A stretch of DNA of 64,000 nucleotides from Candidatus Bathyarchaeota archaeon (GTDB taxonomy: Archaea > Thermoproteota > Bathyarchaeia > TCS64): NCBI GenBank assembly GCA_963769425.1, contig CAVYLP010000004.1, forward strand, positions 352,494-416,493, in the 5' to 3' direction. Each line of letters begins with the position of its first letter. The stretch's first letter is position 1. The notes under the pieces are model-generated. The model searched no databases and had not been told where the DNA came from. It saw nothing but the letters and a program-made list of their open reading frames with translations. The translations under genes and the position numbers were made by a program. Below, piece by piece: positions 1,717-39,444 of the stretch.

Positions 1717-1959
1717 TCAAGTTGTCGTAGACTGTTCGCATGGAATTTTCTTAGTAACTCGACTCCTTATTTTGGCGTCCCACTCCTCCATGACACCATA
1801 GTCAATCATTGTCGTCATACCCGCAATTGCTGCTCTCAAACTGACACCAACCAAGGGTATTTCGGCCACCGTTATAATGAGGTCAGCGTGCAAGATCACT
1901 CCTTTTTCCAGGATCAAATCTAAGAGATCTACCAAAGCTCCTTCTCTTGTAGGCTCCAT
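1717..1959 (-). CDS. gvpM: Gas vesicle protein GvpM (GvpA/J/M family)
   Basis: 80 aa. LVDLLDLILEKGVILHADLIITVAEIPLVGVSLRAAIAGMTTM matches the GvpA-family core and the GvpM-type LRAAIAGMTTM segment. It is the last gene of the minus-strand gvp operon. Confidence 0.8.
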   Translation of the reverse strand: MEPTREGALVDLLDLILEKGVILHADLIITVAEIPLVGVSLRAAIAGMTTMIDYGVMEEWDAKIRSRVTKKIPCEQSTTT

Positions 1960-1963
1960 GGTT

Positions 1964-3883
1964 TTAGGCCTCCTCCTCGAGTTCTAGCATTAATAGCGCC
2001 TCCCTGAGATGCTTAACCTCAGATTCAACTTTCCTGCCAGATTCTGTCTTAATCTTCCTAATTGAATTCTCAATTAGAGTCCGGTTTTTATTCGACTTAC
2101 CGCTTGGAAATCTGAGTGCTGAGGAAGCTAGAAGACTCATACGTTCCACAGTATTCGCCTTTGACTTTGAGACTTCAACTATGTTAGTCAGTGCATCTGA
2201 TGATTTTTTCATTTCCTTAATGTTTTCGTTTGTAATGGAGATCTCTAGTCTGCTCATAGCCTCCAAATAACCTATCTTCTCCTTCTCAGTGAGGGATTTT
2301 TCTACATCCTCGAATAGCCTTTTAGCACCGAATAAAATAGCCTTGGCATTTTCCGCGGATTTAATATCTGCCACTACTTTAGAGTCTGCATCATCGAATT
2401 TTGTAGCCTCGATGATTTTTAAAGCAATTTCACTCTCTGTAATCTCTTTTGCACTTCTGACGGGGACATCATAACATAACCCGGTCGATAGTACCTCAGC
2501 GGAGACTTTGAGGATACCATCCGCGTCGACTTTAAAGGCGACTTCAACCTCCTGTCCAAACCTAGGTGCAGGTGGGATACCATCTATCTTCAGTAATCCC
2601 AAAGAGGTATTGCCACGTGCAACATCCCTCTCACCCTGTAGAACATGGATGATCATTGTTGATTGTTGGTCTTCTTCCGTAGAAAAATTCCGTCTCGCTA
2701 ACGTCGGAATAGTTGTGTTTCTCTGGATCAACCTGGTAAATATTCCTCCAGCAGTCTCCACGCCAAGAGAGAGAGGTATAACATCCATTAGTAGCATATC
2801 CCTTATCTCGCCGCTCATGATGATACCCTGTGTTAGGGCTCCCATTGCCACAACGTTCATTGGGTCTATGCCCTCCTCCGCCTCTCTCCCGAAGATCTTG
2901 AGGATTTGTCTACGCACCACTGGCATCTTCGTAGGGCCTCCGACTAGCACCAGCTTGTCGATATCCTCGATAGATAGTGATGAGTCTTCGAGAGCTTGCA
3001 TGATTGGCTGACGCAGTCTATTGGTCAACCCAGCAACTAGTAATTCGAGTCTACTACGGGTTAAGACCAATCTTGGTTTTAGTATCTTATCTCCAATAGA
3101 CAGTATGGGGGTAACCGTGACTCTCTCAAGACTGGAGAGTTTTATCTTCATTTGTTCCGCTGCATCTCGGAGTGTGTTCAGGCTTTGGGGATCCGAGCTC
3201 AAATCTATGGAACACTTTCTCTCTATTTCCTTGATGAGGTAGTTGAGGATGGCATCGTCCATATCCTTCCCTCCGAGAACAGTGTCTCCACAGGTTGATC
3301 GAACTTTGAAGATCCCCTGCCTCATCTCCAGTATTGTGATGTCGAAGGTTCCGGCTCCGAGATCGAGCACGGCGATGTCAAGATCTGCGTCTCTTTGGTT
3401 AAGGCCGTAAGCAAGTGCCGCTGCTGTGGGTTCGCTCACGATCCTTAGTACATTGAATCCGGCGAGCTCCCCCGCCTGTCTAGTCGCATTACGCTGACTA
3501 TTATTGAAGTAGGCGGGCACCGTGATCACAGCCTGGTTAATTGTCTCCCCGATGAATCTCTCGGAGTCGAGCTTAATCTTCTTCAAGATGAACGAGGAAA
3601 TTACCTGTGGCGTATACGATACACCGTCGACATTGAAGGTGTAATCAGAGCCCATTTGTCTCTTGACCCATCGGACGACCCTATCTGAATGAACATTAGA
3701 GTATTCTAGAGCCTTCTTACCCACGACTACTTCGCCGTCCTCTCTAAAGGCTACTGCAGATAGGAACATTTTACCATGAGCAGTCTCCCCATCCTCCGAG
3801 GGCACGACCCTGATCTTTCCATCCTTTAAAATAGCGGCTGAAGAGTTGCTGGTCCCAAGATCGATACCCAACGTACGTTTCAA
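1964..3883 (-). CDS. Hsp70/DnaK-family chaperone embedded in the gvp operon
   Basis: 639 aa with a TTG start preceded by AAGGTGA. Hsp70 signatures GIDLGTSNS, DLGAGTFDITIL and LVLVGGPTKMPVV, plus a full substrate-binding domain (DVIPLSLGVETAGG...). Lies 11 nt downstream of the J-domain gene and 4 nt upstream of gvpM. Confidence 0.9.
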   Translation of the reverse strand: MKRTLGIDLGTSNSSAAILKDGKIRVVPSEDGETAHGKMFLSAVAFREDGEVVVGKKALEYSNVHSDRVVRWVKRQMGSDYTFNVDGVSYTPQVISSFILKKIKLDSERFIGETINQAVITVPAYFNNSQRNATRQAGELAGFNVLRIVSEPTAAALAYGLNQRDADLDIAVLDLGAGTFDITILEMRQGIFKVRSTCGDTVLGGKDMDDAILNYLIKEIERKCSIDLSSDPQSLNTLRDAAEQMKIKLSSLERVTVTPILSIGDKILKPRLVLTRSRLELLVAGLTNRLRQPIMQALEDSSLSIEDIDKLVLVGGPTKMPVVRRQILKIFGREAEEGIDPMNVVAMGALTQGIIMSGEIRDMLLMDVIPLSLGVETAGGIFTRLIQRNTTIPTLARRNFSTEEDQQSTMIIHVLQGERDVARGNTSLGLLKIDGIPPAPRFGQEVEVAFKVDADGILKVSAEVLSTGLCYDVPVRSAKEITESEIALKIIEATKFDDADSKVVADIKSAENAKAILFGAKRLFEDVEKSLTEKEKIGYLEAMSRLEISITNENIKEMKKSSDALTNIVEVSKSKANTVERMSLLASSALRFPSGKSNKNRTLIENSIRKIKTESGRKVESEVKHLREALLMLELEEEA

Positions 3884-3894
3884 GCAACTTCACC

Positions 3895-4881
3895 TTAAGA
3901 TAGGACCCGACGACCTGCCAGGGAGACGATCAGCCTGTCTTCAACTAGCTGGTCATCGGTATTGCAGGGATAATTCTCGCAGTACTCGACTAAGAGATCT
4001 CTAGCGCTTTTTAGGGCCCTGAACTCGTGTTCAGTATCTGGGCTTGTGTTATCGTCTGGGTGACAAAGCCGAATCAATTTCTTGAAAACGATTTCAACGT
4101 CAGATAATGAGAAAGGGTCATCTAAACCTAGGAGTTTCTTTGCCTTTGATACCTGCTCGAAACTAACTTTTTTTACACTGAGATTAACGAAATCGTAGGG
4201 AGGTAGTGGTGTAACACATCGGAATTTGAGCACCTCCTGGTAAGCATCTTCCAGTTCATCTATTTTTAAGAGGAAATCGGTTGAATCCCTGTCTTTCACT
4301 AGGAATGAGTTGTTGAAAATCATATCGCTATTTTCAATCTTTCTCTCTTTGCATCCAATCGCTAGGGCATTCAAGGAGTTAAGGATCCCTGGGATCAGCT
4401 TCCTCTCCTCTGACGTGAGAGACTCTTTTATTCTTCGACCTAGCTCAATTTTTAATGCTACGCTATTAGGTGCCTCTTTGAGTTTCTCGAAGGATAACTT
4501 CACGTTCTTCTCATTCATGACGTTGGATAGAACTTGATTATTCCAAGAAACCCTGATATCCACCTGAAATGTTCCCCTTAAACGTTCGATTGTTTCCTTG
4601 AAGGGGATTAAACCCTGCTTCAAGATGTCTTTGATATCTTTTTCGTTTCTTGCGAATAGCCCAAAACCAACGGGCACCACCGAGCCCTCTTTCATAGCTC
4701 GTAAAATGACTTTTTCATGTGTCAAAGCATCTACTGGCTTCATTTCTTCCGTGTCAGGAAATTGACTTGATAATATGCAGATTTCTTTAAATGAGATCGT
4801 TGAAACCTCGGCTCCACGAATTCCAATATTTCCTAAGCTGTGATTTCTAGGTTCACTCGCTACACAGTAGATGTAGTTCAT
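3895..4881 (-). CDS. GvpF/L-family protein with C-terminal J-domain
   Basis: 328 aa. The N-terminus (MNYIYCVAS...) and PLPPYDFV near residue 226 are typical of GvpF/L. Residues about 241-301 read LLGLDDPFSLSDVEIVFKKLIRLCHPDDN...EFRALKSARDLLVEY, a J-domain pattern with the HPD codons at 4054-4062. There is a 4-nt start/stop overlap with the upstream gvpF/L. Confidence 0.8.
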   Translation of the reverse strand: MNYIYCVASEPRNHSLGNIGIRGAEVSTISFKEICILSSQFPDTEEMKPVDALTHEKVILRAMKEGSVVPVGFGLFARNEKDIKDILKQGLIPFKETIERLRGTFQVDIRVSWNNQVLSNVMNEKNVKLSFEKLKEAPNSVALKIELGRRIKESLTSEERKLIPGILNSLNALAIGCKERKIENSDMIFNNSFLVKDRDSTDFLLKIDELEDAYQEVLKFRCVTPLPPYDFVNLSVKKVSFEQVSKAKKLLGLDDPFSLSDVEIVFKKLIRLCHPDDNTSPDTEHEFRALKSARDLLVEYCENYPCNTDDQLVEDRLIVSLAGRRVLS

Positions 4882-5669
4882 TTACCGACCACCCTATCGC
4901 TACCAGAAAAGACAAAGGAGTAGGGTGGCCAAGGGCCAGTGAACTTTACGGTTAAACCATCTTTCTCGATGAAGGTTGAGAGCATTTTTCCGAGAGGCTT
5001 GACGTTCTCCGTATTAACGAGGCATGAAATTTTTAGTATCATTTGGGATTTTTCTTCGAGTGATGGAGTCTCCTGATGAACCTCATCGGAAAAAACCTTA
5101 ATCTTCTGAAATTTCTCCTCGGCAATGGCTCGAGCTTCCACCTCCCTGAAGACTCTTGTTTTCTGCTCCAGTTTTTTTTGCAGGAGGTATGATGCACCCT
5201 TCGGTTTATTCTCTAGAGCTTCCTTGAGAGCAGATACTTCGGGGTGTTTATTGACAAGTTCTCCGAGGACGCCATCATCTATGCTGATCTTAATGCTATA
5301 CTCCGCTTTATTTTTGAACGTCTCTAGTAGACTAATCAGTCTGTCATGCTCCTCATTGAGCCAATTAATCACCTCTTCGTCTCCTCCCTTGAAGATTGTG
5401 TTAAACTTCAGGGGAACAACGGTCTCGTAACGATGCATCGCGAGGTCAACGATATTTTGGTGGGACATCACCCACTCTCTCGCAATTTTATCATCAGTGG
5501 TATCATATGGTTCGGAGCTGCATTGGTGAACGATTCCGCTGATACCGTTGGTCGAGACGGAGTGAACTTGTTGTCCGTTTATTCCAGGGAAACTCAGATC
5601 TCTCTCTTTCGGAATATGATTTGTGACACAGTAGAGATATGTTCCAAGTCCACTGGTCCCATTACCCAA
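4878..5669 (-). CDS. Gas vesicle protein GvpF/L family
   Basis: 263 aa with the GTYLYCV N-terminal motif and a C-terminal GPWPPYSF motif. Overlaps both neighbours. Confidence 0.85.
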   Translation of the reverse strand: MGNGTSGLGTYLYCVTNHIPKERDLSFPGINGQQVHSVSTNGISGIVHQCSSEPYDTTDDKIAREWVMSHQNIVDLAMHRYETVVPLKFNTIFKGGDEEVINWLNEEHDRLISLLETFKNKAEYSIKISIDDGVLGELVNKHPEVSALKEALENKPKGASYLLQKKLEQKTRVFREVEARAIAEEKFQKIKVFSDEVHQETPSLEEKSQMILKISCLVNTENVKPLGKMLSTFIEKDGLTVKFTGPWPPYSFVFSGSDRVVGK

Positions 5670-5988
5670 TTTTCCTTACCTCCCTCGAGGATTGAGGATT
5701 CACTAAGTCAATACTGTCTTCAACCAGCTTATTCAGTTCACCGCGGACATTCCTAACGACATCTGTAAGATTATTCTCAATTTTTATCAAATCTATTGCT
5801 TTATCTAACTCAATTAGACTCAATCCAAGTCTATCTATCTCATCATCAGTTAGCTGTAAACTATCCATTCTCCTTACTGCCTCTTTCTCAAGTACATCTT
5901 TTATTATCTCTACTAATGCGACAACCAATCCCAGTAGACCGGATTTAAGATTGTCCTCGTCTATTTTAATCATAGTTTTAAGCTCCAC
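5662..5988 (-). CDS. gvpK: Gas vesicle protein GvpK
   Basis: 108 aa. LKSGLLGLVVALVEIIKDVLEKEAVRRMDSLQLTDDEIDRLG matches the GvpK pattern. Confidence 0.85.
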   Translation of the reverse strand: MELKTMIKIDEDNLKSGLLGLVVALVEIIKDVLEKEAVRRMDSLQLTDDEIDRLGLSLIELDKAIDLIKIENNLTDVVRNVRGELNKLVEDSIDLVNPQSSREVRKIG

Positions 5989-6007: not shown

Positions 6008-6355
6008 TTACTTCCAAATTTCTTGTTCTTTCCAGCCACACATACATTCATTTTTCTTTAGTGCGTTTTCGAAAATCTTTCCACAGTTGGGGCAAGCCTC
6101 TTTAGCTGCCAAAGCCTTCCAGGCTGGCGCGTTTAGGTTCGTCCCCGAAGGAAATTCGAGGCCGAATTTCGCCGCCGTCTCGAATGAAGCAAGTGCCGCC
6201 CTTATCTTAACTCCTAGAAGCTCCACACCAACGACACTTACCATAATGTCCGCGTTAATTACCAGACCTTTATCGAGGATCATACCGATAGCATCTGCAA
6301 GACCCGTTGGTCCTTCTTTTTCAGGGCTCAGGATTAGTTCATTTGTGTTCATCAA
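6008..6355 (-). CDS. gvpJ: Gas vesicle protein GvpJ (GvpA family) with Cys4 tail
   Basis: 115 aa with a GvpA-family core (LADAIGMILDKGLVINADIMVSVVGVELLGVKIRAALASFETAAKFG). The C-terminal tail reads CPNC-x12-CMC. Confidence 0.85.
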   Translation of the reverse strand: MMNTNELILSPEKEGPTGLADAIGMILDKGLVINADIMVSVVGVELLGVKIRAALASFETAAKFGLEFPSGTNLNAPAWKALAAKEACPNCGKIFENALKKNECMCGWKEQEIWK

Positions 6356-6468: not shown

Positions 6469-6783
6469 CTAATTTACTTTAACGTCGTTATGTATATCGT
6501 TAAGAAGATTAATTCTTAAAGAGTTTAAATTGTTAAGTTCTTCAATATCTCTTAATTTAAGGTTTAATTCTTTATTTTTTCTTACGTACTCTTCCCTTGT
6601 TATTTCTCCGAGCTCATAAAAGAGGCTATTTTCCTTCAAATTATCAAGTACCCATTTTTTTACTTCCTTTTGATAGGCCTCTTCTGCGTTACTCGAAATG
6701 GTTTCCATCAACCATATCATGTCAAATGGGGGAAGCGAGAGACCTACAGAGCGTAGCAGAATATCATCTATAAAAAAAACCAT
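6469..6783 (-). CDS. gvpG: Gas vesicle protein GvpG
   Basis: 104 aa. MVFFIDDILLRSVGLSLPP...GEITREEYVRKNKEL fits the GvpG pattern. Confidence 0.7.
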   Translation of the reverse strand: MVFFIDDILLRSVGLSLPPFDMIWLMETISSNAEEAYQKEVKKWVLDNLKENSLFYELGEITREEYVRKNKELNLKLRDIEELNNLNSLRINLLNDIHNDVKVN

Positions 6784-6795
6784 TCACATCAAGAC

Positions 6796-7602
6796 CTATC
6801 GCTTAAACTCTATGCCTTCTTTTCCGATCTTGATGTGAATAAAATTATAGGGTGCCCAAGGACCGCTATATAGAAGCTTCACCATCGGATACATCGATCT
6901 CAACCGAGCAACTTCCTCCGAGAACGGGGGTAAACTATCTTTCTTTACCAAGAATGATTCATTGAATAATAACCGGTCACTAAATAATTCACCAGACACC
7001 GATTTAATTGCCAAACATTTTAGAGGTTCAAGAATTTCAGTAGGTTTTAAATCTTGAGTGTCAGTTAGATCCTTCATAATTACCCCCTTAACTCCTAGCT
7101 CAACGCAATTCTCGACGGATCTAAGTGCCTCCGTGATGTGGGTACTCGCCTTTTCAAGGAGTTGCTTGAGAACTACTCCAGACTGGAGCACTGTTTCGAA
7201 CTCGGCTGGAATAACTGTATTAGATTCCAAGAGAAGTCGAAGTACCTCGTTATGTCTCTTCGCATTCGCTTCAGTGAGCTCATATTCCCCTTTTTCAGTG
7301 TCGCTTACGACGCCGGCTAAGCCTTCATATTGAATTACATAAACTTCTTCGTCGAGTATACCTATTTTCCCGAAATTCGCTTTTCCGTTATTGAATATTA
7401 TTGCGTAGAGGTATTTTCCGGATTGCATATTTCCAACATAGGTTACTTTTGCAGATCGATTTTCTTCATTAATTTTGATATCTGTTATAGTTTCAGTATC
7501 AGCAATAACTGTTCCCGATTCTTCACTTTTAGGTATTATCTTATAAGCTGTTTGTGTCTCCACCGTTGAGCTCAAAGTGAGTTCATTGTTAGGTTCAATC
7601 AA
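6796..7602 (-). CDS. Gas vesicle protein GvpF/L family with about 60-aa N-terminal extension
   Basis: 268 aa with GKYLYAIIFN and a C-terminal SGPWAPYNF. There is an 8-nt overlap with the upstream regulator gene. Confidence 0.8.
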   Translation of the reverse strand: MIEPNNELTLSSTVETQTAYKIIPKSEESGTVIADTETITDIKINEENRSAKVTYVGNMQSGKYLYAIIFNNGKANFGKIGILDEEVYVIQYEGLAGVVSDTEKGEYELTEANAKRHNEVLRLLLESNTVIPAEFETVLQSGVVLKQLLEKASTHITEALRSVENCVELGVKGVIMKDLTDTQDLKPTEILEPLKCLAIKSVSGELFSDRLLFNESFLVKKDSLPPFSEEVARLRSMYPMVKLLYSGPWAPYNFIHIKIGKEGIEFKR

Positions 7603-8491
7603 GCCATGGATCTCTCCTTCTGTTCGAATTTAGTCTTACTGTGTTGTCAACCAGTTGACCGGCTTCCATTTGAAGGTTCGATCTACTTTGAAGATAATTA
7701 TTTAACATTTTTCGGGCTTGTATTTGGTCAGAGATTAGTTGCTGTATTTCACTCTCGGATTCGCTAGTGGTTTTGTATATCCGCTCCTTTCCCATTCTCA
7801 TGGAAGAAAGTAGCCCCTTTTTCTGTAGAGAATCTAGTAGGGGATAGACGGCGCCTGGACTTAGTAGAACATTGAACTCCATATTTATCGTTTTCATTAT
7901 GTCTAACCCAGTCATCATTTTCTCCTGCATTAATGAGAGAATAATTATGTCCAAATTATCTTTCACATTCTTTTTTATGGAGTCATAAGATACCTGAAGC
8001 GATTCTATAAATTCTCCAGAAATGAGGGCCAGATCGTTCGTCGTTAGCTGTAAGAGAGTGTGAAGTTTGGAGAGTGGTTTGATCATTTGTTCAGATAAGG
8101 CGTTTATTCGATACGTGCAAAGGCATCTGATGGGATTCTTAGCGATTAATCCGATAATATTCTGTTCTCGCTCCCAGATCTGCTCATATGTCTGACTCGG
8201 TAGAGATCCTGTATCGATGATTAGACGTATCTTGGTTTTTTTATCTGATTCATCGTTCAGACTATTTAATCCATCGAAGCTAAGGACTTTCAAGTTAACA
8301 TTGGCTAAGTCTAATTCGTTTATGATTTTCCCTTGTTCGTCTGATGAAATTATTATTGCATCTTCATCGTCTTCCATAGAATCAAAAAAAGACTTGTGTA
8401 TTAGTTGTTTATTCACCTTTGATGAATATAGGTGTAAAATATGCTCTGAAGATTTAGTGTCTATAATACAACTTAAATCATTACTAATCAT
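7595..8491 (-). CDS. PadR-type wHTH regulator with N-terminal MEDS-like sensory domain
   Basis: 298 aa. The C-terminal half has the PadR signature (LLSPGAVYPLLDSLQKKGLL...ERIYKTT). The N-terminal about 170 aa (HILHLYSS...IRCLCTYRINAL...LHTLL) resembles a MEDS domain by eye only. Confidence 0.6.
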   Translation of the reverse strand: MISNDLSCIIDTKSSEHILHLYSSKVNKQLIHKSFFDSMEDDEDAIIISSDEQGKIINELDLANVNLKVLSFDGLNSLNDESDKKTKIRLIIDTGSLPSQTYEQIWEREQNIIGLIAKNPIRCLCTYRINALSEQMIKPLSKLHTLLQLTTNDLALISGEFIESLQVSYDSIKKNVKDNLDIIILSLMQEKMMTGLDIMKTINMEFNVLLSPGAVYPLLDSLQKKGLLSSMRMGKERIYKTTSESESEIQQLISDQIQARKMLNNYLQSRSNLQMEAGQLVDNTVRLNSNRRRDPWLD

Positions 8492-8566: not shown

Positions 8567-8854
8567 TTATCCTGAGTAGTGATCAAAGCGTTTACGGATC
8601 AATATCTGCTTCCAGCCCAAAATCTTGCCACTTGCATTGAAGTTAACCTGGTAACGACTGAGAAGATCTTGAGAGTCGGGCATACCCTTTCTTTCGAGAG
8701 CCTCAACGATTACGTACCAGCCATCCTTGGACTCCTCGATACTTACAACCGTCTCAGCTTTACGTAGAATCGTATTTTTCACTATATCCATTGCTGACAT
8801 CACAAAAAATTCGATTGGGGGAGTATTCTGCATCATAGCTTCGTTACTTGACAA
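8567..8854 (-). CDS. gvpO: Gas vesicle protein GvpO
   Basis: 95 aa. VVSIEESKDGWYVIVEALERKGMPDSQDLLSRYQVNFNASGKILGWKQ fits the GvpO pattern. Starts 2 nt after the gvpN stop. Confidence 0.7.
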   Translation of the reverse strand: MSSNEAMMQNTPPIEFFVMSAMDIVKNTILRKAETVVSIEESKDGWYVIVEALERKGMPDSQDLLSRYQVNFNASGKILGWKQILIRKRFDHYSG

Positions 8855-8856
8855 GT

Positions 8857-9870
8857 TTATTGATCCTTCCTGTAGACATCCCTCAATACATCGTCAACTA
8901 AGGTGATGTACTTCGAATCCGATTCGGGACCTGAGATCTTTGAGGAAAGTACATCGAGGTATATCTGCTGAATGTCCTCGAACTCTCGACTCATCATTAC
9001 TCTTAGCCCCCTTCCAACCATTATAGCCGCTCGGGTTCCCGGCTTCGACTCAAGGGGCATTTTATCCCTAATATGCCTCATCGAAGTAACTACTTTTCCC
9101 GCGTCTTCGTCATTAAGCCCAGTGTGCTTCATCACAATATCGAGCTCTGTGGGGAAATCGTAATAGTCCATGTAAATGTGAATCATGCGATCCAGAAGGG
9201 CATCTTGTGGCCTGTGAACACCAGCATACTCGATGGAGTTGCTTGTGAATATTACACTGAAGTTAGGATGCACCTTCACGTAGCGTTGTGCACCAAACAT
9301 CATTGGAAGCTCGAGAATGCCCTCTTCGAGGACTGAAAGTAGCACGTTGTTGGCCATCGGCTTTGCTCGAGAAAACTCGTTATAGATTAGAGTGTAGCCA
9401 TACTTACATGCGATCGTAAGTGGGTTATCCACCCACATGTATTTACTCTTGTCCTTCGCGACGACGACGTTGTGTACGTACCTATCCCTAATTATGGATG
9501 TCTCCATCTCGGAGTACCCTCCGATCAGGTCTCCAGTTGTCATTTGATCGTCTCCGTTTACCCATAGAATGGGTTGGCCCATTTTCCTGGCTACGGCTAG
9601 CGCTAGCGTCGTCTTCCCACACCCGGTTGGACCTATTAGATGTGGAGAATACCCAACATCGGTCCACTTCACTACTCGCTCAATTATCTTGCTGACTTGT
9701 TCTGTCTCCACGAAATTCTCATTGGCTGGAACCAGAAACTCGAAATCTACTTTATCAATTTTTATAGGTTCTTCGTTTTTCACTCTTTTCTTCTTATCTG
9801 AGTGCTCCTTCATCGTGTCATGTATTTTTGACCCAATCACTCGTCGAGGATGCGCTTCCTTGTAATACAT
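8857..9870 (-). CDS. gvpN: Gas vesicle AAA+ ATPase GvpN
   Basis: 337 aa with Walker A GPTGCGKTT. The overall pattern is typical of GvpN/CbbQ-like ATPases. It is the first gene of the minus-strand operon. Confidence 0.9.
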   Translation of the reverse strand: MYYKEAHPRRVIGSKIHDTMKEHSDKKKRVKNEEPIKIDKVDFEFLVPANENFVETEQVSKIIERVVKWTDVGYSPHLIGPTGCGKTTLALAVARKMGQPILWVNGDDQMTTGDLIGGYSEMETSIIRDRYVHNVVVAKDKSKYMWVDNPLTIACKYGYTLIYNEFSRAKPMANNVLLSVLEEGILELPMMFGAQRYVKVHPNFSVIFTSNSIEYAGVHRPQDALLDRMIHIYMDYYDFPTELDIVMKHTGLNDEDAGKVVTSMRHIRDKMPLESKPGTRAAIMVGRGLRVMMSREFEDIQQIYLDVLSSKISGPESDSKYITLVDDVLRDVYRKDQ

Positions 9871-10367: not shown

Positions 10368-11081
10368 TTAGATTGTCTTTAACTTTTTTAAAGTTATTTC
10401 TAAAATACCATTTTCGTATTTCTTTTTAACATCAGTTTTATCGGCTTTTTCAGGGAGGTTTATTTCGATGAGGTTATTGTCATTTAGACCAGTATTTATT
10501 TTTAGCTTATCCCGATCGACTTCGACTGTTATTTTCTTTTCGTCCAAGTTTGGTAGCTCAGCTATTATGGTGATGTAGTCGACATTTTCCGTTATTTCGA
10601 TTAAGGGTTCGTTATTATCTAGGGATTTGGGTAAATCTCCGAGTTTTAAGTTGAGGGATGGCTCTTTTCCAGGACGTTTACTGTTAAGACTGCTGTGGCC
10701 AACGATATGACCTTTCAGAGGTCTGGCGTTTATTTTATATTCGAAGACACCTTTTTTTCCTGCTACCTCAAATTCCTTTTTAACATATTCCGTTTTTTCT
10801 GATAGTTCAGATAATCTGTTAATAATATCTATAAATCCGCCGTTTTTATTATTATCACTCGCCTTTCCAGAAATTCCCATAGTGTTAAAAGTTAAATTGA
10901 ATAGATCTGATACCTCATTCACCATTTTCTTTAAATCACTATTTTCATCTACTTGTTTATTTTTTTGCATCTTTTCATTTAATTCTTGTAAGCTTTTTTC
11001 AATTTTCTCGATTTCATTTTTCCTTTGTTTTACTTCTTCCGATAAGTCCTCTATTTTTTTTCTGATGTCATCATTTGACAA
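10368..11081 (-). CDS. Hsp20/alpha-crystallin small heat-shock protein with N-terminal coiled coil
   Basis: 237 aa. The C-terminal about 90 aa (IEITENVDYITIIAELPNLDEKKITVEVDRDKL...KKKYENGILEITLKK) is an alpha-crystallin domain pattern. The N-terminal half is Lys/Glu-rich coiled coil. Confidence 0.8.
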   Translation of the reverse strand: MSNDDIRKKIEDLSEEVKQRKNEIEKIEKSLQELNEKMQKNKQVDENSDLKKMVNEVSDLFNLTFNTMGISGKASDNNKNGGFIDIINRLSELSEKTEYVKKEFEVAGKKGVFEYKINARPLKGHIVGHSSLNSKRPGKEPSLNLKLGDLPKSLDNNEPLIEITENVDYITIIAELPNLDEKKITVEVDRDKLKINTGLNDNNLIEINLPEKADKTDVKKKYENGILEITLKKLKTI

Positions 11082-11096
11082 TTCATTAACACACTC

Positions 11097-11465
11097 TTAG
11101 ACATTATTCGCGTTCAAATTTTTTAATAAATGTATATTTACAAAACTGAATATTCTTTCACTATGTTTTTGATACGAATCATTAATTATATGTACCCTTA
11201 TTTGACCTTTCTCAGTGAGAGAATATAATTTTCTTCTATCCATGGAGTTAACTTCTATAAATCCCTCCTTCTCAAGATGATATAGAAGAGGGTACAGAGT
11301 CCCTGGGCTAAGTAAAACGCCGAACGACTTGTGTAATTCTCCGATTAATTTGTATCCGTATATGGGTTCGCCATTCAGCATAGCAAGTACTATTACGTCT
11401 AAAAATGTCTTGATCATGCTGTCGTTTAGTTTTTCCGAAGTATATTCTGGATACATCGTGGTCAT
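11097..11465 (-). CDS. PadR-family transcriptional regulator
   Basis: 122 aa. FLDVIVLAMLNGEPIYGYKLIGELHKSFGVLLSPGTLYPLLYHLEKEGFI is a classic PadR wHTH. Transcribed divergently from gvpA. Confidence 0.85.
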   Translation of the reverse strand: MTTMYPEYTSEKLNDSMIKTFLDVIVLAMLNGEPIYGYKLIGELHKSFGVLLSPGTLYPLLYHLEKEGFIEVNSMDRRKLYSLTEKGQIRVHIINDSYQKHSERIFSFVNIHLLKNLNANNV

Positions 11466-11736: not shown

Positions 11737-11967
11737 ATGAAAATGGTAAGTCAAACCCCAGATGCAAGCAGTCTCGCAGAAGTTATCGACAGGATACTGG
11801 ACAAAGGTCTAGTCGTGGACGTATGGGCCAGGGCTTCACTGGTTGGGATAGAGATCCTGACCATCGAGGCTCGCGTGGTCGCAGCCAGCGTTGACACGTT
11901 CCTCCACTACGCTGAGGAGATGACAAAGGTCGAGCAAGCGGCCATTGCCGTTGCCCCAGCTGCGTAG
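11737..11967 (+). CDS. gvpA: Major gas vesicle structural protein GvpA
   Basis: 76 aa. [52 protein letters not shown] is the near-universal GvpA core. Confidence 0.95.
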
Positions 11968-11997: not shown

Positions 11998-12522
11998 TTG
12001 AGGTGTATGACCACGGCCGAATACAATGAAGCCAAAGAAACGTATATCAAGGAGCTAGCAAGCAACAACTCAAGGAAAAAGTTGGATGAGATAGCATCGG
12101 CTTTGGACCTTGACCCCAAGAAGTACGCGAGCAAGAGGGAGATTGCATTAGCAATCATGCTGGCTGGCAGTCAAGCTCTGTTGTATAGGTCTAACGTCGA
12201 CACCGCCGATACAGAAGAGGAAAAAAAGGAGATGAGTAAACAAATGAGTTCCGTGAAAAGCATCAGAAAAGCCATCAACGACGAAGCAGAGAGTTTCATG
12301 ACATTCTATAAGGGCGAGTTTATGACCAACATAGCAGCGTTCCATGATGCCACTCAGATGTTCAGAGAGGACATCAAAAAGCAGGTGAAGGAGAACAACG
12401 ACTTTGATCATGAATTTGGTCAGAGTGTCAAGAAATATCAGGACAGCATAGAAATCTTCAGACGCAGCATACTAGAACAGTCAAAAGAGAACCAAAAATA
12501 CATCAGACAGTTCTACGGCTAA
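11998..12522 (+). CDS. Hypothetical protein immediately downstream of gvpA (GvpC position)
   Basis: 174-aa ORF with a TTG start at 11998 and an alternative ATG at 12007. It is hydrophilic and helical-looking, with two loosely similar about 30-aa C-terminal segments. No clear similarity to GvpC. Confidence 0.5.
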   Translation: MRCMTTAEYNEAKETYIKELASNNSRKKLDEIASALDLDPKKYASKREIALAIMLAGSQALLYRSNVDTADTEEEKKEMSKQMSSVKSIRKAINDEAESFMTFYKGEFMTNIAAFHDATQMFREDIKKQVKENNDFDHEFGQSVKKYQDSIEIFRRSILEQSKENQKYIRQFYG

Positions 12523-13287: not shown

Positions 13288-13539
13288 TCAACCATTAGCC
13301 CAGGTGTTATTTTTGGCTTTAGCCGCTTTCGCAGGAGCAAAAATCTCACTCTCTATACCAACTAAATGTTTAGCCTCTTGGAAGGAAATCAAGAAATCCT
13401 TTCCCTTCTCAGTGATCATGTAATGCTTCCTCTTCCCTATGCCTTCCTCAGCAGGGGTACGGTACTTCAAAAGTCCCTGATCTAGGGAGTCGTATAAGTG
13501 AGAACCTACTTGTTTCCAGTTGCAGCTCGCCATGTACAT
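13288..13539 (-). CDS. Small winged-helix-like protein, possibly 5'-truncated
   Basis: 83 aa. LYDSLDQGLLKY...KHYMITEKGKDFLISFQEA resembles the recognition-helix/wing part of small archaeal wHTH proteins. The N-terminal part of the fold appears to be missing. Confidence 0.35.
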   Translation of the reverse strand: MYMASCNWKQVGSHLYDSLDQGLLKYRTPAEEGIGKRKHYMITEKGKDFLISFQEAKHLVGIESEIFAPAKAAKAKNNTWANG

Positions 13540-33906: not shown

Positions 33907-36900
33907 TTACTTTTTAAGGTGTAGGGTTTTTCCTTCTAGATTTATTCTATTTCCCACTAGCATTTTCTCCAGCTCCGTTTCGAGTATTTTGTTGGTTTTA
34001 GGTGTCTGTCTGGCCCTGAAGGCGTTCGCGGTTTCCTGTATGAGGGATTCGCGGCTTAGACCTAAGGAGTGGCTTAGGACGTGCAGCATCATCGTCTCTA
34101 TCTCCTCTGAGGGTATGTATTCGATTGGCCTGACCTCGGCTTCGGGCCCGTTTAGGGGCACCCTCATCTTGACCGTTATGACCCCCATGGGCCATAGGTA
34201 GTCTCCGCGTTTTTCGAGTTTGCCTTTTTTTGTCATTTCCTCGACGGTTGCCCAGTACGCTTTGTGGAAGGAGGGTGGTGCTGGCTTCAGGTTCATGGCT
34301 TTGTTTAGGCGTTTGAATGCGTACTCAAGGTGTATGGGGCCCTCTACGCGGACAAGTTTGGGTAGAAGGTTTCGGATTTCGAGGAGGTAGAGGTCAAGGT
34401 AGAGTTCCCTCTGGCTAGGGGGGATCGAGTTGAAGGTCTGGCTTGATTCAAGGGATGCCCTCCGGTAGGGTTCCGACCCGGGGAGTTCATCGCTTCTTCT
34501 CTCGGTTACCTTTTCGTATTCGATGCCTTTTTTCGGAGTGGTTCCTTTGATTTGGATTTTCTCGTGGCCTTTTTCGTGTGTTTCAGCCTGCTTTAGTGCT
34601 TGTGCGAGGCGCTCCACTTCGGTGGCTCGTCTGTAGACCCACTCTGGGGACCAGATTCTGTGTAAATCCCAGCCCATTCCCTCAAGTACCTGGGCTCTGA
34701 GTCTATCCCTATCCCTCGTGGTGGCTGTTGACCAGTAGCTCTCTCCATCGAGTATGACGCCTAGAATGAATCTGTGGAGGTTCTCCGGGGTCTTTACGCC
34801 GATGTCTACTCTCAGCGAGCTTTCCCCTATTTGTGGGATCGCTACATACCCGAGTTTCCGGATCTCTTCTGCGACATCTTTCTGTATTTCCGGTAGGTTT
34901 GTCGACTCCTCATTTGGCAACTCCGGTGTTTTGGATGCCTGCTCTACATAGGTCATGTAGTCGTGCAGACACTTCACGCCGACGGATTTGGTCGTGGATA
35001 GGTCTATTTCGCTTGACTTGAAGGAGCTGACGAGTATTACTTTCTCGCGTGCCCTTGTCACGGCGACGTTTAGCCGGCGCTCCCCTCCATCCATGTTCAG
35101 CGGGCCAAAGTTCATGGTCATGACTCCTCCTTTGTCGTAGCCGTACCCGACGCTGATGACTATGACGTCTCTCTCATCGCCCTGAATATTTTCAAGGTTC
35201 TTGACGAAGAAGCCTCTGAGGCGATCCTCGTGGAGTAGATTCTTGTATTCAGGGTTCTGGGCTAGGCGGGCCTCGATTTCATCTTTGACGGTGTTCATCT
35301 GGCTTATGCTGAAGGTCATGACGCCGAGGGATTTCTCAGGGTGCTCTGTGAGATGTTTGAATACGATATCCGCTACTACCACAGCTTCCTTCGGGTTGTT
35401 ACGTGCGCCTCCTCGGTCGTAGACTCCATCCGGCACGTAGGTGAACTCTAACCCGAGCTCGCCTCCTTTATTGGCAGCGGGTGGGAAGGTGATGAGTTTG
35501 TTATCGTAGAACTCCTTGTTTGAGAAAGCTATGAGTGAGTCGTGCTTGCTCCTATAGTGCCAGCGTAGCATGCTGACGGGTAGTCCCATACCCATGCACT
35601 CGTCTAGTACGCTGTCGTATACCCCCACTTCTTGGGTTGCTTCTTCCCACTCAGTGTCGTTTTCGGCGATGTACTGGAAGAATGGAGTTGGAGGTAGTTG
35701 CTTGTTGTCGCCTGCCACTATCAGGGTGTCACCCCTGTATATGGATCCAACCGCGTCCTCGGTGAAGATCTGGGAGGCCTCGTCGAAGACGACGAGGTCG
35801 AAGTGTAGTCGTTCGGGAAGTATGAACTGGCTCACTGATATTGGGCTCATCAGGAGGCAGGGCTTTAGTCTCCTGATGAGGTTGGGTACTCTGTTGAACA
35901 GTTGGCGGAGTGGCATCTGTCTTCGCTTCTTGGCCGCTTCCTTGAGGAGAATGTTGATCTCCGAATCTGGGGCGTCGACGAAGACTCCTTGAGGTTTTTT
36001 TGCGTTTGCTGCTTCGATGACCTTTTTAGGTGACCTCTCTATCAAAGCGGAGTCGAGGGATCTGAAGTCATCGACGACTTGGTCCTGGTCTTTGGCCCTG
36101 AAGGAGCCTAGGGTCGCGTCCTCTTCCGCGAAGTAGTTTATGAGGCCGCTGTAAATTGATTTCTTGTAGACATCGATTAGAATCTCTCTGCGGTATCTCT
36201 TCTCGACGAGTTGTTCGACTAGGTTCCTGAGTCCCCCTTCGATGAGTCTAGAGGATGAATTATTGAAGTCTATCCACGCTTGTAGGTCATCTATTCTTTG
36301 GGCGAGTTTCTCCGAGACGAGTAGAACCTCGTCGACGGTGAGGCTCTGGGCTCGTTCTCCCCAAAGGGGGTTGCTGAACCTTGAGTTCAACTCGTTGATC
36401 AGGCTATGTATCTCTCGGAGGTGTTTCTGGGAGTCAAACTTCGGGGGCTCAAGGGTTGGATCTGTGGCGAAGCCGATGACTTCTGCTGTGGGCTTCGTCG
36501 GTAGGGCCTTGAGGAGGGCGCGTGTCCATTCTATTGCAGCTATCACCTTCAGCCAGTTGGTGGAGGTTCCTTGGTAGAGTCCCCCATACGTCTCTCTTAG
36601 CTGGTAGGCTTGTTCGGTCTCCTCTTCCTCGAAGCTTTGTAGTCTTTCAGTCTTCCTGATGTCTAAAAGGAGTGTAAGGAGGGTCTTAGGGTGATCTGAG
36701 GTCAATGTGATGAGGGCGGGCTGAAGGACTTCGTGGAGAGTTTCTAGTCTCTTTTTGAGCTCGGTGGCCCAATCCTTCAGCTCTCTCAGGGGGAGGTTCA
36801 CAAACCTAGTTTTACCGTTTTGGTTCCTCTCTGGAAGGATCACGCGTAACGGTTTCTGCGCTGCTCTCCAGCTTTGCAGCGAAGCGCCTAGGCTTCGGGA

Positions 36901-39444
36901 TAGGGTGAGGAGTTCATCACTTGGCTTTGTGGCTATGCAGAGGTTGTCCCTTGTCAGCTTCGGGGCTCTGGAGGAGTGTATTAGGTGCAGTATCTCTTTG
37001 GCGTTGTTGATTGCTTCTCCAGCGGCCTCTAGGTCGGGGTTTCCGTCCCGATAGTAGGCTCCAAGTCTGCTCTTAGCCTCCTCCTGCTCGGAGGCTACTG
37101 TCTTCTGCAGCTCCTTTAGCTCTAAACCCAATTTGAGATCTTGGAGAACAGTTATTGGGATTTCTCCGGTAATTGTCGCCCTTGATATTTCGTCCCTGAT
37201 ATTGTAGTAACTTGGCCTCAGGTATCTGAGGGGGGATGACCAGGTACCCTCAAGGTAGGTTATTATGGTTGGAAGATCAAGGGACGTAACCTCGTCCCTG
37301 TAAGCAGTGAGTTTTGACTTGAGTTCGTCTCTTTTTAGTCGCTGTGCCTTGGCCTTTTCGAGGTATTTCTCCGTCTGCTCAAGGTCAGCTTTATTGAGCC
37401 AGTTTCTATCAGGTTTGTTGGTACTTTCGCAGAGTTTTGTGATGCGGTGGATTCGTCTTGCCGTAGTGATTGTCAGTGTATCGGTGGGGAGACCCAGGAT
37501 CGTCGAGATCTTTTCTGTTAACTCTCCCCATTTATCTGCGTCTCTTATGGTATGATCTAGGAATTTTATTAGGTCATCGAGGTGTTTTAGGATGTCCTGG
37601 TCGCCCTTGAGATTGGGTTGGAGGAGTTCGGAGGTTTTCTTCCAGGTTTCCTCGACTCTTTCAGCTGTGCCTCTTGGGAGACTCCTGAACCTGCTATCGT
37701 ACCTACTTTCAAGGTCGGCTCTAATCGCCCAGTATTCGCCCCACTTCAGGTTATTTGCTTCAGCTACCTGTTGAACCTTGGTTAGGTCAACGTCTTGGAG
37801 CCAACGCTGTGGTGGGTGGGGGGTGGCTTCTATGATGTTCGCTAGTCTCTGGAGTGTGTCATAGCTTTCGAGGCTCTTCGGTGTATCGAGCCTGAGTTTT
37901 TCACAGTAGTCGTTTGCGTTTGAGTGTAGCTGTTTGGTTGCGTCTATTAGTGAGGTGAGTAAGTTGGTCCACTCATTGCGTACGTCTAATGTGTATGTTG
38001 TTGCTTTGCAGCCATTCCAGGGAAATTCTGCACCTTCTTCTACGACGACCCAGGAGTTTTGGAGGTAGTTGATCTGCTCTTCGAGGCTGAAGATTGTCTT
38101 CTGGTCGAGGGTGCTGAAGCTCGTGTACCCTGATGGGATTAGTGGAAGGGATCCGAGTTTTGCGACCTCGTTTAGGATCTTGTAGGCACTTGTGTTGGAG
38201 GGTTGTCTAGTCTTGTGGAGGGATTCAACGTATGTGTTTAGCTGGTTTCTCCGATGCTTGAGTCGTTCTATTTCCTCCTCGCTCATTCCTTTGCCTGGTT
38301 TCAGGTGCTCTGTTAGGGATCTGCTTAGCTCGTTGATGACCTCTCGCTTGTTTGCTTTGTAGCTGTGTAATTCGAGGCAGTACTCGTCGAGGTTCTTCTC
38401 CTTAAGGCGGTTGTATACTACCTCGAGTGCAGCCATCTTCTCGCTCACGAAGAGGACGCTTCTACCGGCGGCGATGTATTCGGATATTATGTTGGAAATT
38501 GTCTGGCTCTTTCCGGTTCCGGGTGGACCATGCATTACATAGGATTGTCCTCGGAGCGCGTATTGGATGCAGAGTTGCTGGCTGCTGTCGGCGTCCAAGA
38601 TCTGGTACGTTTTGCCTGGGTCCACGATGGCGTCAAGGTCCTCGACCTTGGGTAGGTTTCGTTGGATGAGTCCAATGTTGGAGACTCCTGCTAGGGCCTT
38701 CAGGGTTGGGTGTTCGGTGATGCGTCTTAGGTTGTCCGTCATGTCCTGGTAAATCGCGAGTTTGGCGAAGCTGAATAGGCCAAGGTATACGGTGGGCTCG
38801 ACGGTCCACCCCAGCTCTTTTACGACTGCTTTTATGGTCGCCAGGTAGCTTGACGGGGTCTGTTCCTCTTGCTCCTGGAGGTAGGAGAGGTCCAAGTCGT
38901 GCTCGTATTTCAGTTTGAGTATGAGGGCTGGGTTGACGAGCAGGTCTTCCTCTACTGGAGGTACCCTTATCTGGTATGGTTCACGCGTCGAGTCTCTTGT
39001 GAGCTCGACGGGGGTTAGGAGCAGGGGTGAGATGATCTCCTGGCTGCTATTCTTCTCGGTCCACCTCAGTTGGCCGAATGTTACGTAGAGGATCCGTATT
39101 CCACGTTCAGTGTACTCGGTTTGGGAGCGTCGGCTTAGGTTTCGGAGGGTTCTGTCGAGTTGGTTTGGGTCCGACGACTCTAAGGTGATCTCGTTGCTCT
39201 TGGGTGCCCTCTTTTTTGGTGTTGGCTCACCCGGCATCGTCGTTGGGGGTTGTTGGATCTCCCAGCTTCTCCCCCTTGTGACGAGTCGGCTGTAAACGGC
39301 CTCCATGTCGGGGGAGGTGAGGGTGAGGAGTGAGGTTTTAGTTGGTTGGAGATAGATGGCTTTGTTTCTTTTAGTGAGGTCGATTAGGCGAAGCTTCCAG
39401 TCATCTACGCGTCTGGCTACCCTCTGGGATTCGGGAGATTCCAA
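33907..39444 (-). CDS. Giant SF1 (Upf1/DNA2-like) helicase with DUF4011-like N-terminus, restriction-endonuclease-like domain and DUF3320-like C-terminus
   Basis: 1845 aa. The N-terminus reads WKLRLIDLTKRNKAIY. Walker A is HGPPGTGKSQT (nt 38506-38532). An about 800-aa helical insert follows, then VVFDEASQI, AGDNKQLPPT, RWHYRSKHDSLIAFSN and GDERDVIVIS. A PD-(D/E)xK/Vsr-like block (LRVDIGV...VILDGESYW...GWDLHRIW) lies at about nt 34630-34878, followed by a C-terminal about 185-aa domain. Confidence 0.9.
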   Translation of the reverse strand: MESPESQRVARRVDDWKLRLIDLTKRNKAIYLQPTKTSLLTLTSPDMEAVYSRLVTRGRSWEIQQPPTTMPGEPTPKKRAPKSNEITLESSDPNQLDRTLRNLSRRSQTEYTERGIRILYVTFGQLRWTEKNSSQEIISPLLLTPVELTRDSTREPYQIRVPPVEEDLLVNPALILKLKYEHDLDLSYLQEQEEQTPSSYLATIKAVVKELGWTVEPTVYLGLFSFAKLAIYQDMTDNLRRITEHPTLKALAGVSNIGLIQRNLPKVEDLDAIVDPGKTYQILDADSSQQLCIQYALRGQSYVMHGPPGTGKSQTISNIISEYIAAGRSVLFVSEKMAALEVVYNRLKEKNLDEYCLELHSYKANKREVINELSRSLTEHLKPGKGMSEEEIERLKHRRNQLNTYVESLHKTRQPSNTSAYKILNEVAKLGSLPLIPSGYTSFSTLDQKTIFSLEEQINYLQNSWVVVEEGAEFPWNGCKATTYTLDVRNEWTNLLTSLIDATKQLHSNANDYCEKLRLDTPKSLESYDTLQRLANIIEATPHPPQRWLQDVDLTKVQQVAEANNLKWGEYWAIRADLESRYDSRFRSLPRGTAERVEETWKKTSELLQPNLKGDQDILKHLDDLIKFLDHTIRDADKWGELTEKISTILGLPTDTLTITTARRIHRITKLCESTNKPDRNWLNKADLEQTEKYLEKAKAQRLKRDELKSKLTAYRDEVTSLDLPTIITYLEGTWSSPLRYLRPSYYNIRDEISRATITGEIPITVLQDLKLGLELKELQKTVASEQEEAKSRLGAYYRDGNPDLEAAGEAINNAKEILHLIHSSRAPKLTRDNLCIATKPSDELLTLSRSLGASLQSWRAAQKPLRVILPERNQNGKTRFVNLPLRELKDWATELKKRLETLHEVLQPALITLTSDHPKTLLTLLLDIRKTERLQSFEEEETEQAYQLRETYGGLYQGTSTNWLKVIAAIEWTRALLKALPTKPTAEVIGFATDPTLEPPKFDSQKHLREIHSLINELNSRFSNPLWGERAQSLTVDEVLLVSEKLAQRIDDLQAWIDFNNSSSRLIEGGLRNLVEQLVEKRYRREILIDVYKKSIYSGLINYFAEEDATLGSFRAKDQDQVVDDFRSLDSALIERSPKKVIEAANAKKPQGVFVDAPDSEINILLKEAAKKRRQMPLRQLFNRVPNLIRRLKPCLLMSPISVSQFILPERLHFDLVVFDEASQIFTEDAVGSIYRGDTLIVAGDNKQLPPTPFFQYIAENDTEWEEATQEVGVYDSVLDECMGMGLPVSMLRWHYRSKHDSLIAFSNKEFYDNKLITFPPAANKGGELGLEFTYVPDGVYDRGGARNNPKEAVVVADIVFKHLTEHPEKSLGVMTFSISQMNTVKDEIEARLAQNPEYKNLLHEDRLRGFFVKNLENIQGDERDVIVISVGYGYDKGGVMTMNFGPLNMDGGERRLNVAVTRAREKVILVSSFKSSEIDLSTTKSVGVKCLHDYMTYVEQASKTPELPNEESTNLPEIQKDVAEEIRKLGYVAIPQIGESSLRVDIGVKTPENLHRFILGVILDGESYWSTATTRDRDRLRAQVLEGMGWDLHRIWSPEWVYRRATEVERLAQALKQAETHEKGHEKIQIKGTTPKKGIEYEKVTERRSDELPGSEPYRRASLESSQTFNSIPPSQRELYLDLYLLEIRNLLPKLVRVEGPIHLEYAFKRLNKAMNLKPAPPSFHKAYWATVEEMTKKGKLEKRGDYLWPMGVITVKMRVPLNGPEAEVRPIEYIPSEEIETMMLHVLSHSLGLSRESLIQETANAFRARQTPKTNKILETELEKMLVGNRINLEGKTLHLKK

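Follow-up and report, generated by a model that had tools for sequence, protein, structure and literature searches.

A GvpF-like protein with a C-terminal J-domain, encoded beside an Hsp70 in a bathyarchaeotal gas-vesicle cluster, and its relatives across Archaea and Bacteria

The GvpA-family proteins of gas vesicles are very hydrophobic and prone to aggregation, and how they are kept soluble and inserted into the growing vesicle is an open question, in which GvpF and GvpL figure only as presumed chaperones or scaffolds. In haloarchaea, GvpF binds monomeric GvpA and has been discussed as a GvpA chaperone, and GvpA, GvpJ and GvpM aggregate without chaperones (PMC9501494). A 2010 analysis recorded that gvp clusters with several L/F paralogues contain genes for ArsA and Hsp20; it mentions neither Hsp70 nor DnaJ (PMC2963123). 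Our search of the full-text literature retrieved no description of a GvpF/L–J fusion or of a gvp-linked Hsp70. A preliminary description of the locus reported here had likewise named no precedent for such a fusion; this stands for the literature, but the combination already appears in automatic annotation, as IMG names for some family members include ‘Gas vesicle synthesis protein GvpL/GvpF/DnaJ domain’. The NCBI label for family members is ‘GvpL/GvpF family gas vesicle protein’.

The locus lies in a 64,000-nucleotide stretch of a Candidatus Bathyarchaeota contig, termed the window below. The fused gene sits within a complete gas-vesicle cluster, with GvpA, N, O, F, G, J, K, L and M all present, and ten related loci likewise place it among gas-vesicle genes; loci of related sequences on other contigs carry our L numbers (L001, L002 and so on).

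1717..1959, minus strand: small hydrophobic protein of the GvpM/GvpA family, 80 aa, last gene of the operon and candidate client (PF00741, E=7.6e-14)
1964..3883, minus strand: Hsp70, 639 aa, divergent DnaK-like paralogue and proposed partner (PF00012, E=3e-158)
3895..4881, minus strand: GvpF-like::J-domain protein, complete gene, 328 aa (ORF list, sequence, two Pfam domains, AF2)
4878..5669, minus strand: GvpL, 263 aa (PF06386, E=3e-59; NCBIfam GvpL 202.7 bits, cut-off 200)
5662..5988, minus strand: GvpK (PF05121, E=2.6e-17)
6008..6355, minus strand: GvpJ-like protein with a C-terminal Cys motif (PF00741, E=6e-13; motif conserved in L001, L002 and L010)
6469..6783, minus strand: GvpG (PF05120, 32.1 bits)
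6796..7602, minus strand: unfused GvpF/L paralogue in the gvpF position (PF06386, E=2.6e-37; with the GvpF-type proteins in a neighbour-joining (NJ) tree)
7595..8491, minus strand: PadR/MEDS regulator within the cluster (PF03551, 34.7 bits; MEDS match weak)
8567..8854, minus strand: GvpO (PF05800, E=4e-15)
8857..9870, minus strand: GvpN AAA+ ATPase (PF07728, E=7e-19)
10368..11081, minus strand: small heat-shock protein, Hsp20 domain at residues 164-235 after an N-terminal coiled coil (PF00011, 22.4 bits, cut-off 20.8)
11737..11967, plus strand: GvpA, major shell protein, transcribed divergently (PF00741, E=3e-12)

The minus-strand genes follow the order PadR, Hsp20-type protein, GvpN, GvpO, PadR/MEDS, GvpF, GvpG, GvpJ, GvpK, GvpL, the J-fused paralogue, Hsp70 and the GvpM-like protein, while transcription of gvpA and of a conserved 174-aa ORF diverges from theirs. 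No GrpE match was obtained among the Pfam-scanned ORFs of the cluster, a result that we count against the recruitment of Hsp70 proposed below.

Several further features of the cluster were recorded. The C-terminal motif of the GvpJ-like protein, CPxCG...C(x1-2)CGW, resembles a zinc ribbon, reading CMC in the window copy (6008..6355, minus strand) and CxxC in its relatives (L001 5184-5525, L002 8523-8870 and L010 7594-7968). The 174-aa ORF right after gvpA (11998..12522, plus strand) has no Pfam match and encodes a helical, charged protein ending in ...FYG, possibly a GvpC-like outer-surface protein; its relatives lie at L002 2329-2850 and L010 1926-2669, the latter with internal repeats. Three PadR-type regulators are encoded in or beside the cluster (7595..8491, 11097..11465 and 13288..13539, all on the minus strand), and the one located within the operon gives a weak match to MEDS (methanogen/methylotroph sensory). 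Nearly all related clusters also contain Hsp20 genes. Elsewhere in the window, an ORF of 1845 aa occupies 33907..39444 on the minus strand.

The fused gene is the third GvpF/L paralogue of its operon. Its ATG start overlaps the TGA stop of the upstream GvpL gene by 4 nt (ATGA), its TAA stop occupies positions 3895-3897, and the Hsp70 ORF (1964..3883) begins 11 nt beyond, the spacing first noted from the DNA alone. A Pfam scan returned only two matches in the 328-aa protein, GvpL_GvpF and DnaJ, and an AF2 model of the full protein, built from a 100-sequence alignment, reached a pLDDT of 94.6 and a pTM of 0.87. The features within the gene are as follows.

4183..4875, minus strand: GvpL/GvpF domain, residues 3-233 (PF06386, Foldseek, NCBIfam)
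3973..4161, minus strand: J-domain, helices I-III, residues 241-303 (PF00226, PDB matches, AF2, Foldseek, dN/dS)
4054..4062, minus strand: HPD tripeptide, H274 P275 D276 (codons CAC CCA GAC)
3919..3933, minus strand: beta-strand following the J-domain, as predicted by AF2 and assigned by DSSP, residues 317-321 (RLIVS)

The GvpF/L hallmarks reported for this protein were all recovered, namely an N-terminal MNYIYCVA and a PLPPYDFV near residue 230, the counterpart of the GPWPPYSF that ends the neighbouring protein (4878..5669). PF06386 matched residues 3-233 with 154.3 bits (cut-off 23.6; E=7.3e-45), covering profile positions 3-245 of 245. When the model was compared with the PDB using Foldseek, the top matches were the GvpF crystal structures 6l5d and 4qsg (E ~1e-14, TM 0.76-0.84), with Anabaena GvpF (6l5d_B) aligned at E=5.2e-15, a target TM of 0.84 and an RMSD of 2.7 Å over 242 columns; in the predicted structure, the body has the two-domain alpha/beta fold of GvpF. 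Residues 1 to ~238 share this fold with GvpF from Microcystis (4QSG) and Anabaena (6L5D) and with haloarchaeal GvpF and GvpL, to whose Pfam family the protein belongs, and its gene likewise stands in a gvp operon beside GvpK and GvpL. It differs from them in adding a C-terminal J-domain of ~90 aa and a terminal strand, and in coexisting with an ordinary GvpF and an ordinary GvpL in a single operon. Against the NCBIfam models, the fused protein scored 79.9 bits for GvpF (NF052351; cut-off 350) and 26.5 for GvpL (NF045778; cut-off 200), so it is nearer GvpF than GvpL yet far below both equivalog cut-offs. When the N-terminal domains alone were placed in an NJ tree—a crude reconstruction without bootstrap support—all fused members grouped in a clade of their own, distinct from the GvpF-type and GvpL-type paralogues of the same clusters, a pattern suggestive of a single ancient fusion with later spread, as opposed to recurrent fusion events.

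By sequence and predicted fold, the tail is a genuine J-domain, as the preliminary description had proposed from residues 241-301 (nt 3979-4161) and the HPD at 4054-4062, positions that agree with the sequence. Searched alone, the 92-aa tail scored 29.1 bits against Pfam DnaJ (PF00226; E=1e-6), above the gathering cut-off of 27.8. In the context of the whole protein, residues 249-297 scored 26.4 bits (E=7.6e-6), and we counted this near-threshold value (26.4 against 27.8) against a role in recruiting Hsp70; the match spans only profile positions 4-53 of 63 and leaves helix IV uncovered. Among aligned homologs of the fused protein, 99 of 100 matched Pfam DnaJ at E<=1e-3, the best at 7e-18. A phmmer comparison of the tail with sequences of solved structures retrieved 31 J-domain sequences (best E=3e-4). 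The AF2 model places helix I at 241-250, helix II at 259-273, the HPD at 274-276 and a long helix III at 281-303, followed by a short helix IV at 310-314 and the final strand at 317-321. Foldseek matched this predicted tail to more than 30 J-domain structures at probability 1.00, with RMSDs of 1.0-2.3 Å over 50-61 columns; for the DnaK-bound J-domain of DnaJ (5nro_B), the RMSD was 1.0 Å over 53 columns. A chance HPD in a helical tail was ruled out by the agreement of profile, PDB-sequence and fold matches, and once the family is included, the J-domain identity is, judged by sequence, far beyond chance. The L/I/V hydrophobic pattern of strand 317-321 is kept across the family alignment, and the strand would presumably dock on the GvpF sheet.

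Scanning mutagenesis of E. coli DnaJ reportedly identified six essential residues, including P34 of the HPD. By our hand alignment, in which we take F266/K267 to pair with DnaJ Y25/K26 and F287 with F47, five of these six are identical here (K26, H33, P34, D35 and F47), with Y25 replaced by F. In comparisons of the window with the two sequenced relatives nearest to it, dN/dS was 0.076-0.097 for the J-domain, showing purifying selection, against 0.12-0.15 for the GvpF body; the tail is constrained at least as much as the body. Relative to DnaJ (class A) and CbpA (class B), the helix II–HPD–helix III layout is common, and the modelled tail superposes on 5nro_B, 4j7z and 3ucs at 1.0-2.3 Å. In those proteins, however, the J-domain is N-terminal, whereas here it is C-terminal, and the fused protein has no G/F region, zinc-finger domain or DnaJ C-terminal domains. 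With a single C-terminal J-domain and none of the other DnaJ domains, it is placed by exclusion among the class C (type III) J-proteins.

Other genomes carry the fusion as well. A single-protein genome scan matched only a Bathyarchaeota MAG; an exhaustive phmmer/HMMER search of 1.84 billion representatives gave 1758 matches and revealed a large subfamily combining GvpL_GvpF and DnaJ domains, comprising at least 130 fused representatives (50%-identity clusters) from both Bacteria and Archaea. Members occur in Bathyarchaeota, Methanocellales (MAG protein MDI6903659.1), Chloroflexota (MAG protein MBI4298080.1) and Desulfobacterota, and include the cultured Desulfoluna butyratoxydans. The 100 aligned members are 21-37% identical to the query, save two close relatives at 73-78%. 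A word-indexed profile search, which scored the 8000 candidates with the most words in common, added few members. Four close relatives (73-89% identity), one of them from a MAG named ‘Candidatus Bathyarchaeota archaeon’, all encode 328 aa on independent contigs and retain the gene order and Hsp70 of the window. We therefore ruled out an assembly or frameshift artefact joining two genes—the danger acknowledged when the fusion was first proposed—since orthologs of the same length, with shared gene order, lie on at least five independent contigs from different samples (those of L001/L008, L002, L003 and L004 among them), and the at least 130 diverse full-length fused proteins exclude it further.

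The conservation of the HPD, which the original proposal required, holds across the family but fails in the closest sister lineage. Among the best 150 of the 1758 matches, 137 are at least 300 aa long and aligned through the J-domain, and the tripeptide is present in 130 of these 137, leaving a degenerate motif in ~5% of long members. In the sister lineage, 89% identical to the window protein, a single codon change (CCA to ACA) turns HPD into HTD on three contigs (L002 10001-10987, L003 5036-6022 and L004 946-1932), with the downstream Hsp70 gene intact; as P34 is reportedly essential in E. coli DnaJ, this counts against recruitment of Hsp70. On another reading, the tail might have ceased to signal to Hsp70 and, like the J-like domain of Pam16/Tim16, serve a structural purpose, being kept for folding or for protein contacts inside the Gvp machinery. 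Such a role would suit the continuing purifying selection on the J-domain between the window and the HTD-bearing L002 (dN/dS 0.076), the retention of the domain in the ~5% of members without HPD, and the atypical helix IV outside the Pfam match. It sits poorly with an HPD retained here and in 95% of long members at only 23-37% overall identity, and with the retention of the further residues said to be essential in DnaJ, and it leaves the linkage to Hsp70 unexplained; we regard it as very improbable.

The Hsp70 gene downstream of the fusion starts with TTG, preceded by GGTGA, and its product has the full Hsp70 architecture by Pfam and 45% identity to Geobacillus DnaK. It retains the interdomain linker MLLMD and the R of VLRIVSEPT (equivalent to DnaK R167). 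NCBIfam scores favor DnaK (576 bits) over HscA (449 bits), and the protein falls under both DnaK equivalog cut-offs (NF001413, 576.4 against 648; TIGR02350, 566.7 against 822.55), which points to a specialised paralogue. Three of the five other gvp-linked Hsp70s examined are also below both cut-offs, and the remaining two (L009 and L013) pass one. A special monophyletic lineage of gvp-linked Hsp70s was considered and is not supported: the archaeal and Desulfobacterota proteins share 40-42% identity with each other and 45-53% with Geobacillus DnaK, so that these identities do not demonstrate a co-evolving lineage. What does hold is the more modest statement that most gvp-linked Hsp70s score under the DnaK equivalog cut-offs. 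In a Chloroflexota cluster (L011 14089-15597), the Hsp70 has only 502 aa and covers DnaK profile positions 1-491 of 625; from its sequence, it appears to lack most of the helical lid.

An Hsp70 gene occurs in the same gvp cluster at nine of the ten fusion loci examined. It lies directly downstream of the fusion in five (the window, L001, L002, L010 and L009 from Methanocellales), with spacings in the archaeal loci ranging from a 4-nt overlap to a 23-nt gap, and a few kb downstream, behind a GvpM-like gene, in L005 (Desulfoluna butyratoxydans), L006, L011 (Chloroflexota) and L013. The tenth locus, L012, has no Hsp70 within 10 kb of the fusion, and a cluster-encoded partner is therefore not obligatory. 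Its fused member (L012 10001-11104), which lies in a full gvp cluster, is abundant, representing a cluster of 121 sequences and found on 21 contigs.

These loci bear on the choice of partner. The J-domain could be functional and work with a housekeeping DnaK/Hsp70, the cluster Hsp70 having a separate task, such as general holdase activity toward GvpA-family proteins. The full gvp cluster of L012, with a fusion and no Hsp70 nearby, fits this arrangement, as do the pairwise identities, by which gvp-linked Hsp70s are not an obviously distinct lineage, and the L009 and L013 proteins that pass one DnaK cut-off. We nevertheless consider a housekeeping partner unlikely, given an Hsp70 in the cluster at nine of ten loci and directly downstream in all archaeal ones, and given that most cluster Hsp70s fall under the DnaK thresholds.

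Our preferred reading, to which we assign a probability of roughly 65%, is that the fused protein is a class C J-protein whose GvpF body binds GvpA-family clients and hands them to the cluster-encoded Hsp70. By analogy with the haloarchaeal GvpF–GvpA interaction (PMC9501494), the GvpF-like body would bind a gas-vesicle component, most likely an aggregation-prone protein of the GvpA/J/M family, or alternatively the nascent vesicle or nucleation complex. The HPD loop would then dock on the ATP-bound Hsp70 translated from the adjoining gene—the J-domain tail serving, as originally suggested, as a physical adaptor that recruits Hsp70—and would stimulate ATP hydrolysis, upon which Hsp70 would clamp the client and either keep it soluble or pass it on so that it enters the shell in an ordered manner. 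We infer the client, the use of the adjacent Hsp70 and not of a housekeeping DnaK, and the holding, delivery or remodelling role from these domain assignments and gene associations.

A remodelling role could also take an auxilin-like form, in which GvpF-J, positioned on an assembled Gvp complex (the nucleation complex or the vesicle surface), would bring in Hsp70 so that accessory proteins are stripped off or recycled, instead of attending to monomers ahead of assembly. GvpF/L proteins act as hubs of interaction in the nucleation complex that has been proposed (PMC9501494), the pTM of 0.87 and the conserved post-J strand suggest from the model a rigidly mounted J-domain, as would be expected of a lattice-bound adaptor, and CDC48-like AAA+ unfoldases are encoded in many fusion clusters. 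The evidence gathered here is compatible both with this form and with a holdase or delivery role; we hold this variant to be improbable beside the delivery of GvpA-family clients to the cluster Hsp70. The gene neighborhoods of J-fused GvpF in bacteria and Methanocellales include both CDC48-like double-AAA+ and two-domain ArsA-like ATPases (L005 7882-10011 and 18617-20536; L006; L009 10593-12554; L012 13216-15408; L013 1383-3569), which amount to an extended chaperone/ATPase toolkit around the gas-vesicle genes. In addition, a 169-aa ORF in the gvp cluster of L013 (7369-7878) gives faint matches to the DnaJ zinc finger (CXXCXGXG).

The conserved GvpF::J fusion, together with an Hsp70 in the same operon, provides an evolutionary argument for the GvpF fold as a client-binding module and argues that Hsp70 ATP cycles join gas-vesicle assembly in many lineages; it also suggests a dedicated Hsp70 chaperone for gas-vesicle construction in many microbes. 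On a broader reading, for which we judge the odds to be even, gas-vesicle biogenesis would be Hsp70-driven across a wide range of mostly anaerobic bacteria and archaea, with a GvpF-derived J-protein targeting the cluster Hsp70 to amyloid-like GvpA-family proteins, often together with a small heat-shock protein, a CDC48-like AAA+ ATPase and an ArsA-like ATPase. Heterologous expression of gas vesicles as acoustic reporter genes suffers from proteotoxic stress, with host chaperone capacity named as limiting (PMC12848028), and co-expression of the J-GvpF/Hsp70 pair could therefore be of practical use.

If the broader reading is true, the GvpF fold would be identified as a client-recognition module, and the pair would constitute an organelle-specific chaperone system that has so far gone unrecognised and that parallels HscB/HscA in the assembly of Fe-S clusters. 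As proposed here for GvpF-J, HscB, encoded in the isc operon, is a class C J-protein with a non-J domain for one class of client, and it works with a divergent Hsp70 paralogue from the same operon in a single assembly pathway. The client-binding domains, in contrast, are unrelated (a GvpF fold here, a helical bundle in HscB), and the Hsp70 here is DnaK-like rather than HscA-like. The second parallel is auxilin/GAK with Hsc70, where a J-domain carried on a lattice-recognising module draws Hsp70, as GvpF-J would, to a self-assembling shell; auxilin/GAK is eukaryotic, unrelated in sequence and acts in clathrin disassembly, whereas GvpF-J could act in assembly or in remodelling.
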